This document shows positions 56,327 through 59,433 of a stretch of 64,000 bases of DNA, in pieces. Within the stretch, counting starts at the first letter, position 1. Each line of letters starts with the position of its first letter. The notes beneath the pieces are model-generated. The model was not told the origin of the DNA, searched no databases, and was given only the letters and a program-made list of their open reading frames with translations. The DNA lies in assembly GCF_053078305.1 (NCBI RefSeq), contig NZ_CP166879.1. One strand, given 5' to 3'. Both the position numbers and the translations under genes were made by a program.

Positions 56327-57745
56327 ATGGAAACCAATATCGTTGAAGTAGAGAACTTTGTTCAGCAGTCAGAAGAGAGGCGGGGTAGCGCCTTTACGCA
56401 GGAAGTGAAACGCTACCTGGAGCGCTACCCGAATACGCAATATGTTGATGTTTTACTTACCGATTTGAATGGTTGCTTCCGTGGAAAACGTATTCCTGTT
56501 TCAAGCCTGAAGAAGCTCGAGAAAGGGTGTTATTTCCCGGCCTCGGTATTTGCAATGGATATTCTGGGCAACGTAGTAGAAGAAGCAGGTCTGGGTCAGG
56601 AAATGGGCGAGCCGGATCGTACCTGTGTTCCTGTTCTCGGTTCCTTAACCCCTTCTGCCGCCGATCCAGAGTTTATCGGTCAGATGCTCCTGACCATGGT
56701 CGATGAAGATGGCGCTCCCTTTGACGTTGAGCCGCGGAACGTTCTTAACCGCCTGTGGCAGCAGCTGCGCCAGCGCGGATTGTTCCCGGTCGTAGCGGTA
56801 GAGCTGGAGTTCTATTTACTGGATCGTCAGCGCGACGCTGAAGGGTATCTGCAACCGCCCTGCGCACCCGGCACCGATGACCGCAATACACAAAGCCAGG
56901 TTTACTCGGTTGATAACCTCAACCACTTCGCCGATGTGCTCAATGATATTGATGAACTGGCACAGTTACAGCTGATTCCGGCAGATGGCGCGGTCGCTGA
57001 GGCCTCGCCGGGTCAGTTTGAAATCAATCTTTACCATACCGATAACGTGCTGAAAGCCTGCGATGATGCGCTGGCACTAAAACGCCTGGTGCGTCTGATG
57101 GCAGAAAAGCATAAGATGCACGCCACTTTTATGGCGAAGCCGTATGAAGAGCACGCGGGCAGCGGGATGCATATCCATATCAGTATGCAAAATAATCGTG
57201 GCGAGAACGTGCTTTCTGACGCGGAAGGCGAAGATTCGCCGCTGCTGAAAAAAATGCTCGCCGGAATGATCGATCTGATGCCGTCATCAATGGCGTTGCT
57301 GGCACCAAACGTGAACTCGTATCGCCGCTTCCAGCCGGGGATGTATGTACCGACGCAGGCGTCGTGGGGCCATAATAACCGTACCGTCGCCCTGCGTATT
57401 CCATGCGGCGATCGTCATAATCACCGCGTGGAATATCGCGTGGCGGGCGCCGATGCCAACCCATATCTGGTGATGGCAGCGATTTTTGCCGGTATTTTGC
57501 ATGGCCTTGATAACGAGCTGCCGTTGCAGGAAGAAGTCGAAGGTAACGGGCTAGAACAGGAAGGCTTACCCTTCCCGATTCGCCAGAGCGATGCCCTGGG
57601 TGAGTTTATCGAGAATGATCACCTGCGCCGCTATTTAGGCGAACGGTTTTGCCATGTCTATCACGCCTGTAAAAATGATGAGCTGTTGCAGTTTGAGCGC
57701 CTCATCACAGAAACAGAAATTGAGTGGATGTTGAAAAACGCGTAA
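56327..57745 (+). CDS. puuA: Glutamate-putrescine ligase (glutamine synthetase family), 472 aa
   Basis: Glutamine-synthetase catalytic-domain sequence. Start at METNIVEVEN. Confidence 0.85.
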   Translation: METNIVEVENFVQQSEERRGSAFTQEVKRYLERYPNTQYVDVLLTDLNGCFRGKRIPVSSLKKLEKGCYFPASVFAMDILGNVVEEAGLGQEMGEPDRTCVPVLGSLTPSAADPEFIGQMLLTMVDEDGAPFDVEPRNVLNRLWQQLRQRGLFPVVAVELEFYLLDRQRDAEGYLQPPCAPGTDDRNTQSQVYSVDNLNHFADVLNDIDELAQLQLIPADGAVAEASPGQFEINLYHTDNVLKACDDALALKRLVRLMAEKHKMHATFMAKPYEEHAGSGMHIHISMQNNRGENVLSDAEGEDSPLLKKMLAGMIDLMPSSMALLAPNVNSYRRFQPGMYVPTQASWGHNNRTVALRIPCGDRHNHRVEYRVAGADANPYLVMAAIFAGILHGLDNELPLQEEVEGNGLEQEGLPFPIRQSDALGEFIENDHLRRYLGERFCHVYHACKNDELLQFERLITETEIEWMLKNA

Positions 57746-57746
57746 T

Positions 57747-57767
57747 ACCCCTTGCGGGGTTGTTTCA
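57747..57767 (+). terminator. Candidate intrinsic terminator after puuA
   Basis: Hairpin cccc-ttgc-gggg followed by ttgtttc. Confidence 0.45.
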
Positions 57768-58047
57768 TCGGCCTGAGCGGAGCCAGGCCTGACATTTGCT
57801 GGTAATCCAGACATTTTCCGGATGTCGCGTTATGGAGCGCAGGCGGCAACGGGCTTCCGTTAACGATTAAGACTGTGACGAGGAAATGAGATGATGCCGA
57901 TGATTAAATCCCCGCATGGCGAGGGAGGCTGCGTATGCGCCCCTCCTGCGACTGACTGGACTCCGCCCCCTTTGCTTCCCTTGCTAAACAGGTTTGATTT
58001 CAGGTCGACACGACCGCAAACCTTATTACGCAGGGGAGGCAGCAATT

Positions 58048-59433
58048 ATGGCTATTAATTCACCACTGAATATTGCTGCGCAACCCGGCAAAACCCGTCT
58101 GCGAAAATCACTGAAATTGTGGCAGGTGGTAATGATGGGTCTGGCCTATCTCACGCCGATGACTGTGTTCGATACTTTTGGCATTGTGTCAGGCATTAGC
58201 GACGGTCACGTTCCGGCGTCCTATTTGCTGGCGCTGGCGGGCGTGCTGTTTACCGCTATCAGCTACGGCAAACTGGTTCGCCAGTTTCCGGAGGCCGGTT
58301 CGGCCTATACCTACGCGCAAAAGTCGATTAACCCGCACGTCGGATTTATGGTCGGCTGGTCATCACTGCTGGATTATCTCTTTTTGCCGATGATCAACGT
58401 TTTGTTGGCGAAAATCTATCTCTCCGCCCTCTTCCCGGAAGTGCCGCCGTGGGTGTGGGTGGTAACCTTCGTCGCCATTTTAACCGCCGCGAATCTGAAG
58501 AGCGTCAACCTGGTCGCTAACTTCAATACCCTGTTTGTACTGGTGCAAATCTCCATCATGGTGGTGTTTATCTTCCTGGTGGTTCAGGGACTGCATAAAG
58601 GAGAAGGCGTTGGCACCGTCTGGTCACTTCAGCCGTTTATCAGCGAGAACGCGCACCTGATCCCGATTATTACCGGGGCGACGATTGTCTGTTTCTCGTT
58701 CCTCGGTTTCGATGCGGTGACCACGCTTTCGGAAGAGACGCCGGACGCCGCACGCGTGATCCCGAAAGCCATCTTCCTGACGGCGGTATACGGCGGCGTT
58801 ATCTTTATCGCTGCGTCGTTCTTTATGCAGCTGTTCTTTCCTGATATCAGCCGCTTTAAAGACCCGGACGCCGCACTGCCTGAAATTGCGCTGTACGTCG
58901 GCGGCAAGCTCTTCCAGTCGATTTTCCTCTGCACCACATTTGTGAACACATTGGCGTCTGGCCTGGCATCACATGCCAGCGTGTCGCGTCTGCTGTATGT
59001 GATGGGGCGTGACAATGTGTTTCCGGAGCGCGTGTTTGGCTATGTGCACCCAAAATGGCGGACTCCGGCACTGAACGTCATTATGGTCGGGATTGTCGCG
59101 ATGTCGGCATTGTTCTTTGATTTAGTCACCGCGACAGCATTGATTAACTTCGGTGCTCTGGTGGCGTTTACCTTCGTGAATCTGTCGGTGTTTAATCATT
59201 TCTGGCGGCGCAAAGGAATGAATAAAAGCTGGAAGGAACACTTCCACTATTTATTAATGCCGCTGGTTGGCGCGCTGACGGTGGGTGTGCTGTGGGTTAA
59301 CCTCGAGTCAACGTCACTGACACTCGGTCTGGTATGGGCTTCGTTAGGCGGCGCATATTTGTGGTATCTGATCCGCCGCTATCGCAAAGTGCCGCTGTAC
59401 GAAGGTGACAGAACGCCGGTGAGCGAAACGTAA
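58048..59433 (+). CDS. puuP: Putrescine importer PuuP (APC superfamily), 461 aa
   Basis: Twelve predicted transmembrane segments. Start at [12 protein letters not shown]. Confidence 0.85.

Follow-up and report, generated by a model that had tools for sequence, protein, structure and literature searches.

Small gene ymjE, which overlaps the start of puuP in Escherichia coli, as a probable leader reading frame of the putrescine importer

The 64,000-nucleotide (nt) stretch of contig NZ_CP166879.1 (NCBI RefSeq assembly GCF_053078305.1) that was analyzed here, referred to below as the window, carries the Escherichia coli putrescine utilization cluster, with puuR and puuD on the minus strand, puuA and puuP on the plus strand, and then ymjA and sapA. 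The spacer between puuA and puuP is 302 nt long and contains a small open reading frame (ORF) that runs into the start of the importer gene puuP. This frame is the gene ymjE, and it is probably a cis-acting leader that is translationally coupled to puuP. An earlier sequence-only reading of the window had pointed out the frame, and its ATG at 57891, its 55 sense codons, its terminal TAA, and its translation were all reproduced, as was the GAGGAA sequence located 5 nt 5′ of the ATG. Two details needed correction: the frame ends at position 58058 rather than 58059, and its overlap with puuP, which starts at 58048, is 11 nt rather than 12 nt.

The 55-codon frame is no discovery, being a known E. 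coli small gene that has had a name, an annotation, and evidence of translation since 2018. The RefSeq coding sequence (CDS) ymjE (WP_120795382.1) maps to positions 57894 to 58058 in a 100%-identical genome and in E. coli K-12 MG1655; in both, it lies between puuA and puuP on the same strand and overlaps the puuP start. It is the same frame minus its first Met, that is, a protein of 54 amino acids (aa) that starts at the second ATG. The peptide matches the Pfam family PF23692 (“YmjE-like”) over residues 2 to 55 with a score of 147.5 bits (cutoff, 27; E = 1e-43), and no NCBIfam model matches it. In a megablast search, the region from 57700 to 58100 was present at ≥95% identity in 4,373 of 5,426 complete E. 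coli genomes. Among the matches listed, every one had a small annotated CDS under it, designated “ymjE,” “protein YmjE,” or “YmjE family protein” in nearly all cases and “hypothetical protein” in one. VanOrsdel et al. (2018; PMC6001520) listed ymjE between puuP and puuA with exactly this 54-aa sequence starting at the second ATG, detected its product by immunoblotting of a chromosomal SPA (sequential peptide affinity) tag, reported it as a positive in a tetracycline ribosome-profiling screen, and considered it possibly co-operonic with puuP. YmjE was among the least abundant tagged small proteins tested by Weaver et al. (bioRxiv 10.1101/511675). Because the ORF is the known and detected ymjE, the checks that the sequence-only reading had proposed, ribosome profiling for translation and conservation of the frame in relatives, already have positive answers. 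The annotated start may nevertheless be one codon late. Since the first ATG (57891) is invariant in all 40 aligned Enterobacteriaceae sequences and the RefSeq ATG (57894) is replaced by ACG in two of them (L011 and L013), the true start may be at 57891, where the sequence-only reading had placed it; the C-terminal tag is unable to discriminate between the two.

Approximately 1,050 of the 5,426 complete E. coli genomes are without puuP or ymjE (∼57700 to 59433), and the best puuP match in these genomes is plaP, with 68% identity. Two single-genome E. coli variants of YmjE (P0008 and P0009) contain short internal frame-shifted stretches, after which the YmjE frame is regained. These are probably indel errors of the assemblies; genuine compensated frameshifts are a possible explanation as well.

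Comparison across genera was based on 80 PuuP-type loci from one scan of species-representative genomes with PuuP. Nearly all Enterobacterales loci have puuA immediately 5′ of the transporter gene, with an unusually long spacer that measures 266 to 426 nt in most of them. An ORF of 55 to 87 codons that ends exactly 11 nt inside the transporter gene was found in 60 of these 80 PuuP/PlaP-type loci, representing Escherichia, Pseudocitrobacter, Klebsiella, Raoultella, Enterobacter, Citrobacter, Trabulsiella, Cedecea, Lelliottia, Buttiauxella, Pluralibacter, Shimwellia, Hafnia, Franconibacter, many Serratia, Edwardsiella, and Photorhabdus; in Samsonia, the ORF ends at position +8 of the transporter gene. 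Between the ORF start and puuP position +8, 49 sequences have no stops at all in the ymjE frame versus 158 and 128 in the other two frames (on average about 3 stops each), which bears out the expectation of a frame conserved in relatives. The start box (CGAGGAAATGAGATGATGC), which can be aligned independently, and the puuP ATG are separated by nine different distances (157, 160, 178, 181, 184, 187, 190, 193, and 202 nt), all of the same class modulo 3. The T-A-A that terminates ymjE is invariant in 40 of 40 sequences. Codon 3 of puuP specifies I, A, T, F, or H, depending on the lineage, yet it invariably ends in T, and the next codon specifies Asn. The same stop arrangement, made from transporter codons 3 and 4, is seen in Serratia, Edwardsiella, and Photorhabdus and in the E. 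coli plaP gene. The sequence-only reading had allowed that the frame “could equally be chance,” a verdict that does not survive these data. Apart from its small size, and from an inverted repeat that proved no better than chance (see below), nothing speaks for a chance ORF in a GC-rich spacer; for an annotated and detected gene that has kept its frame and its stop position in 60 loci across Enterobacterales, the probability of that explanation is practically negligible.

The loci without the ORF are those of the Bacillus-group and Pseudomonas homologues, plus some from Erwinia, Pantoea, and Serratia whose spacer is short (108 to 171 nt). The PuuP homologues of Bacillus, Neobacillus, and Fictibacillus (L063 to L078) and of Pseudomonas aeruginosa PA7 (L075), which have no leader ORF, are 69 to 78% identical to the E. 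coli protein. Because such identity is high across phyla, it suggests horizontal transfer of the transporter gene alone. One more locus (L036), recorded as coming from Chryseobacterium sp. 18061, has a typical Enterobacteriaceae puuA-leader-puuP arrangement with proteins that are 88 to 90% identical to those of E. coli; this assembly is probably contaminated or mislabeled.

Selection on the peptide was evaluated from the ratio of nonsynonymous to synonymous variation (pN/pS) in a codon alignment of the 40 Enterobacteriaceae sequences, with the same columns in shifted frames as controls. In the first 15 codons, pN/pS is 0.24 in frame versus 1.53 and 0.78 in the shifted frames, and variation occurs mainly at third codon positions. 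In the middle and C-terminal codons, it is about 0.75 versus 0.9 to 1.0. Thus, the frame is kept open throughout, and clear protein-level constraint is seen only at the N terminus. The near-neutral evolution beyond that point, the variable length, and a C terminus whose GG..HG residues are dictated by read-through of the puuP Shine-Dalgarno (SD) sequence and ATG all argue against a free-standing small protein acting in trans, e.g., on PuuP or PuuA, for which the overlap with puuP would be mere compact operon organization. Such a role, which would agree with the detectability of SPA-tagged YmjE, the purifying selection on its N-terminal dozen residues, and the treatment of YmjE as a protein family in Pfam, sits poorly with the low abundance of the product and with the E. 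coli paralogue YoeI, which keeps only 20 codons. It also leaves the conserved hairpin and the exact stop position unexplained, and it is considered quite unlikely.

In most lineages, the N-terminal segment is followed near residues 17 to 23 by a second motif, R-x-D/E-Y-G-P, which has the form C-x-x-D-Y-G-A in Edwardsiella and Photorhabdus. This motif is gone in Escherichia, along with about 8 codons, and is blurred in Klebsiella. Comparison of the YmjE-like set with the Serratia/Hafnia/Franconibacter set using hhalign (E = 1.4e-8; 95.5% probability) supports common descent of these peptides; the two comparisons with the Edwardsiella/Photorhabdus/Samsonia set gave weaker support (E = 4.4e-4 with 33.5% probability and E = 1.2e-3 with 19.7% probability). 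The Pfam YmjE model finds the peptides of other genera at or below its cutoff only and misses those of Citrobacter, Serratia, and Hafnia. A classical amino acid attenuator was considered and rejected, as the conserved part is without runs of one codon type.

The puuP SD sequence lies within a long hairpin that is located entirely inside ymjE (Table 1) and is formed by the arms UUGCUUCCCUUGCUAA, which provides the codons for LLPLL, and GCAGGGGAGGCAG, which contains the SD. The predicted folding energy is −35.0 kcal/mol (z = −7.11; 0 of 200 shuffled sequences are as stable), and the predicted probability of the E. coli puuP SD being unpaired is 0.00. The transporter SD is paired with an upstream C-tract in 49 of 49 folded sequences (mean probability of being unpaired, 0.13), even in Serratia, Hafnia, and Franconibacter, where the hairpin interior is unalignable. 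In the 40-sequence alignment, 93% of the cells are paired versus 36 to 58% in slid controls, and 8 of the 15 hairpin pairs have changed on both sides (for example, CCCCC:GGGGG versus CCUCCC:GGGAGG); none of 500 shuffles reached the observed percentage of paired cells, number of cells changed on both sides, or covariation score. Since no U-tract follows position 58042, the hairpin is not an intrinsic terminator. The GC-rich inverted repeat that the sequence-only reading had singled out does exist, but its predicted stability is unremarkable (−14.9 kcal/mol; z = −0.88; 35 of 200 shuffles as stable). It falls where the ORF lacks conservation beyond Escherichia and is of little value as a structural clue, the meaningful hairpin being the long one. 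The idea that the purine-rich GEGG codons serve as an anti-anti-SD element for the C-rich hairpin arm was dropped: judged by eye, it fits Escherichia and Klebsiella but fails for the Enterobacter, Cedecea, and Citrobacter types.

Table 1. Features of the puuA-puuP region, in window coordinates
Feature	Position	Strand	Basis or remarks
puuA	56327-57745	+	
GC-rich stem-loop right after the puuA stop	57747-57760	+	Terminator scan; terminator-like, weak T tail
Box A	57762-57768	+	GUUUCAU in E. coli, GCAUCAU in most genera; complementary to ymjE start AUGAUGC (57891-57897)
P1 hairpin, GGCCUG/CAGGCC	57770-57789	+	Near-invariant loop AGCGGAGC
P2 hairpin, GCUGG/CCAGA	57798-57811	+	CCAGC or CCUGC in other genera
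Box B	57812-57818	+	CAUUUUC, CAUUUCC in most genera; complementary to ymjE SD region GGAAAUG (57882-57888)
P3 stem	57817-57853	+	57817-57819 with 57851-57853; 57824-57828 GUCGC with 57843-57847 GCGGC
SD of ymjE, GAGGAA	57880-57885	+	CGAGG core invariant in 40/40 aligned leaders
ymjE ORF	57891-58058	+	55 codons counted from first ATG; ORF list, translation, RefSeq CDS, Pfam PF23692
Conserved N-terminal coding segment	57891-57935	+	MMPMIKSPHGEGGCV in E. coli; MMQMFKYPHGEG in most genera
GC-rich inverted repeat of the sequence-only reading	57920-57950	+	GGAGG 57924-57928 / CCUCC 57942-57946
Long hairpin inside ymjE	57972-58042	+	71 nt; C/U-rich arm 57972-57987 (codons for LLPLL) pairs with puuP SD arm 58026-58042
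SD of puuP, GGGGAGG	58033-58039	+	Sequence; read as Gly-Gly codons in ymjE
puuP, putrescine/proton symporter gene	58048-59433	+	RefSeq annotation of identical sequence; ORF list
ymjE stop, TAA	58056-58058	+	Last base of puuP codon 3 plus first two bases of codon 4 (AUU AAU)

The RNA upstream of ymjE is also conserved. Spacer positions 20 to 184 (57765 to 57929 of the window) are about 80% identical in most Enterobacteriaceae genera, and the ∼130 nt upstream of ymjE are better conserved than the ORF itself (mean column identity, 77% versus 66%). Overall, 95% of the cells of this 5′ leader are paired versus 23 to 50% in slid controls, and seven pairs show double changes. In the P1 hairpin, 4 of 6 pairs have changed on both sides in the 40 Enterobacteriaceae sequences, and the middle pair of P2 is A-U in 20 sequences and U-A in 18. 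According to RNAalifold and the pair counts, P3 is 98 to 99% paired with little variation; it has a highly conserved loop and a REP (repetitive extragenic palindrome)-like CCGGAUG motif. Two predicted long-range helices would connect this domain with the start of ymjE. The Box A helix (96.7% of cells paired in RNAalifold) is almost invariant on both sides, without covariation. The Box B helix, with 95.4% of cells paired and near-invariant sequences, is present in the minimum-free-energy folds of several genera, its pairing being neither proven nor refuted by these data. The place of the stem-loop right after the puuA stop is filled in other genera by a GC-rich hairpin of different sequence, mostly without a T-run; this element may be a 3′-end stabilizer or a partial terminator between puuA and the leader.

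The search of Rfam 15 with window positions 57000 to 59000 (E values up to 10) found nothing near threshold, the best scores being 15 to 16 bits against gathering cutoffs of 44 to 100, and an Rfam scan of the leaders from four other genera (E values up to 1) gave no match. The profile hidden Markov model of the 5′-leader alignment matched two Franconibacter loci over part of its length only and found nothing in Serratia or Hafnia. Two kinds of additional reading frames in this region were rejected. Small ORFs in the 5′ leader (for example, MSRKGAQA...) occur in some genera but are missing or truncated in others, including E. coli, and thus do not represent conserved coding sequence. The out-of-frame mini-ORF ATG AGA TGA (57886 to 57894), which lies over the ymjE start, is reduced to ATG TGA (start-stop) in Citrobacter, is absent in Klebsiella and Raoultella, and is probably incidental.

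The stronger conservation of these ∼130 nt, with their covarying hairpins, could be taken to mean that only the nucleic acid matters, with the spacer serving as a structured leader (for processing or for binding of a protein or small RNA) or as a set of DNA sites and the open frame being a by-product. An AtoC motif reported as ChIP (chromatin immunoprecipitation) positive for puuP (GCCATGCGGGGATTTAATCA; PMC3118216) is the reverse complement of positions 57901 to 57920 (minus strand), within ymjE codons 4 to 10. This motif could add DNA-level constraint on the N-terminal codons but does not explain the frame, the stop, or the third-position pattern. More generally, an RNA-only or DNA-only explanation fails to account for a single stop-free frame in all lineages with frame-preserving indels, for third-position variation in the N-terminal codons, for a stop held by an invariant synonymous puuP base, and for the experimental detection of the YmjE protein, all of which makes it very improbable.

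A similar arrangement is found at plaP, which encodes the paralogous putrescine importer. In E. coli, RefSeq has a 20-codon ORF, yoeI (MGQFFAYATVITVKENDHVA), whose stop lies 11 nt inside plaP and is formed through CAT-AAC (L083:1384-1446); the xxT-AAy arrangement is thus common to both pairs. YoeI, which matches the NCBIfam model NF033439, also resembles YmjE at the N terminus (M-G-Q-x-F versus M-M-Q-M-F) but, unlike YmjE, has only 20 codons in E. coli and is annotated as a membrane protein. Photorhabdus PlaP-type loci and the related Edwardsiella and Samsonia loci have 70- to 74-codon versions that begin with MGQSF or MEQLF, and the YoeI N terminus, MGQFF, resembles those of the longer upstream ORFs of Edwardsiella and Samsonia. 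From such comparisons, the leader ORF seems to be older than the puuP/plaP duplication, and ymjE and yoeI look like two versions or remnants of one old leader ORF. In a mutant studied by Halvorsen et al. (2024; PMC11630599), complementation was poor with plaP alone and full with yoeI-plaP, and the authors suggested that yoeI affects PlaP expression.

Occlusion of an SD sequence limits translation initiation. The puuP ribosome-binding site appears to be locked in a very stable hairpin that is wholly inside ymjE, and a structure of −35 kcal/mol would make independent initiation at puuP very inefficient. A ribosome translating ymjE would melt this hairpin and terminate at the TAA, 8 to 10 nt downstream of the puuP AUG, whereupon the terminating ribosome or a newly recruited 30S subunit could start on puuP, and PuuP synthesis would follow ymjE translation. 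The locus has the corresponding anatomy, namely, an upstream ORF with its own conserved SD and start, a downstream SD that is computationally predicted to be buried within that ORF, and a stop that overlaps the downstream start. Taken with the conservation of the frame, the stop, and the hairpin, this makes translational coupling of puuP to the cis-acting leader ymjE a probable, if far from certain, arrangement. Regulation could enter at several points: the 5′ domain may act on ymjE initiation, the constrained N-terminal peptide may act inside the ribosome, and Rho may be involved. The first ∼15 codons and the structured ∼130-nt upstream RNA are the likely points of entry. The suggestion of the sequence-only reading that the region is a regulatory upstream ORF (uORF) or a structured leader for the putrescine importer is thus favored by the comparative evidence; its regulatory function, including the dependence of puuP translation on that of ymjE and any signal involved, is what we infer.

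Several observations weigh against translational coupling or its regulatory use. The leader arrangement is dispensable, because in several species of Erwinia, Pantoea, and Serratia the puuA-puuP spacer is short and does not contain the ORF. The helices that would occlude the ymjE start lack covariation support, because both of them never vary, and the E. coli 5′ domain alone folds no better than shuffled sequences (z = −1.16). The covariation tests used structures drawn from the same sequences, which are, moreover, related by descent. Peptide-based sensing may be weakened in Escherichia, because E. coli YmjE is without the mid-peptide R-x-D/E-Y-G-P of most other lineages. Tagged YmjE accumulates to a detectable level, so a separate role for the protein is possible. 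The complementation by yoeI-plaP is indirect and concerns the paralogue. Finally, literature searches found no function for ymjE, nothing linking puuP to a leader peptide or uORF, and no paper linking ymjE translation to PuuP synthesis by experiment.

Coupled gene pairs of this general kind are familiar: in secM-secA and in the classical coupled pairs, a translating or paused ribosome on the upstream ORF opens a hairpin hiding the downstream SD. A terminal G-P is common to the SecM arrest motif and the R-x-D/E-Y-G-P motif of many YmjE relatives, but E. coli YmjE is without G-P, and the resemblance is only a lead. Within the polyamine systems of gammaproteobacteria, speFL-speF-potE likewise has a short translated ORF upstream of polyamine genes and is regulated by ribosome behavior on the leader (bioRxiv 10.1101/604074). 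However, SpeFL stalls at its stop codon and works through Rho antitermination, whereas the conserved part of YmjE is N-terminal. For the spermidine exporter genes mdtJI, translation of the uORF mdtU is needed for expression, and pairing is predicted between a segment of the mdtU RNA and the ribosome-binding site downstream of it (PMC7815308). In contrast to ymjE, which overlaps puuP, mdtU has its stop 106 nt upstream of mdtJ; MdtU is conserved at the C terminus; and its dependence on Rho and spermidine is experimental, whereas at ymjE-puuP such dependence is conjectural.

These precedents suggest a more specific version of the coupling mechanism, in which YmjE would be a metabolite-sensing arrest peptide of the SpeFL/MdtU type. 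Its nascent N terminus would sense putrescine or a polyamine-related compound in the tunnel. By stalling, the ribosome would keep the hairpin from closing or cover a C-rich site for Rho loading, and puuP expression would then require the signal. The conserved part, i.e., the first ∼23 residues with the N-terminal motif and, in most lineages, R-x-D/E-Y-G-P/A, has a length that fits the exit tunnel, but it is far from the stop codon, unlike the situation in SpeFL or TnaC, and its Y-G-P motif has been lost in Escherichia and has degenerated in Klebsiella. C outnumbers G in the ORF body of all 49 sequences (C/G ratio, 1.16 to 2.0; 1.79 in E. coli), and the reverse holds for the upstream leader in 45 of them, but a C-over-G bias is only a weak indicator of a Rho utilization (rut) site. 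A PPP run lies at E. coli codons 25 to 27 (57963 to 57971), just 5′ of the hairpin arm, but it is not kept even among E. coli variants. Uses of uORFs for ornithine in speFL (bioRxiv 10.1101/604074) and for spermidine with Rho in mdtU (PMC7815308) lend this version some plausibility, and with stalling, ligand, and a role for Rho all being purely conjectural at the puuP locus, it is regarded as unlikely.

An equally tentative and, at present, rather doubtful extension is that the entire 300-nt puuA-puuP spacer is an undescribed composite riboregulator of PuuP/PlaP-type importers across Enterobacterales. It would combine a 5′ domain without an Rfam family, whose covarying hairpins and invariant loops gate initiation at the leader ORF, with an ancient YmjE/YoeI leader peptide superfamily that senses putrescine or a polyamine-related signal through an arrest-like motif, and its output would be unmasking of the ribosome-binding site and/or Rho. 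It would be the third polyamine-responsive uORF system of E. coli, beside speFL and mdtU. What may be new is a set of comparative inferences that appear to be unpublished, namely, how widely the family occurs, the relationship of YmjE to YoeI, the hairpin that sequesters the SD, and the structured 5′ leader. If the coupling is real, putrescine uptake would be controlled at translation as well as by the PuuR repressor, and two E. coli small proteins of unknown function, YmjE and YoeI, would gain a role. Putrescine serves as both a nutrient and a signal in the intestine and the urinary tract, and a class of CDI (contact-dependent growth inhibition) toxins uses PuuP and PlaP as entry receptors (PMC11630599). 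On the practical side, cloning of puuP or plaP from the annotated start codon cuts through the leader, which is a warning for the design of constructs.

Transcriptional signals in the region were also considered. A promoter and terminator scan found sites that were no more numerous than expected by chance. A table in PMC10100675, apparently derived from a regulatory database, gives RpoN, RpoS, ArcA, Fnr, PuuR, and the REP variant REPv111 for puuP and ymjE, and RegulonDB-derived lists of sigma-54 promoters include puuP. A candidate sigma-54 promoter of the type GG-N10-GC (aGGCCTGACATTTGCt) at positions 57786 to 57799 was rejected as the source of the conservation: by eye, other genera have 1 to 2 extra bases, and because the spacing is right in Escherichia only, a sigma-54 site cannot explain the conservation across genera. 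A REP element such as REPv111, given in PMC10100675 for puuA/puuP/ymjE, would be a dispersed, multicopy imperfect palindrome whose positions differ between genera. A REP-like CCGGATG is present in P3; however, the 401-nt region is single in each genome (median, 1 place), and the segment is orthologous in at least 10 genera. Extra palindromes resembling REP or BIME (bacterial interspersed mosaic element) sequences (…GCCGGGC…GCCCGG…) occur in the first ∼80 nt after the puuA stop in three Enterobacter-like genomes (L028, L034, and L046), where these insertions stretch the spacer to 416 to 426 nt and leave the leader untouched.

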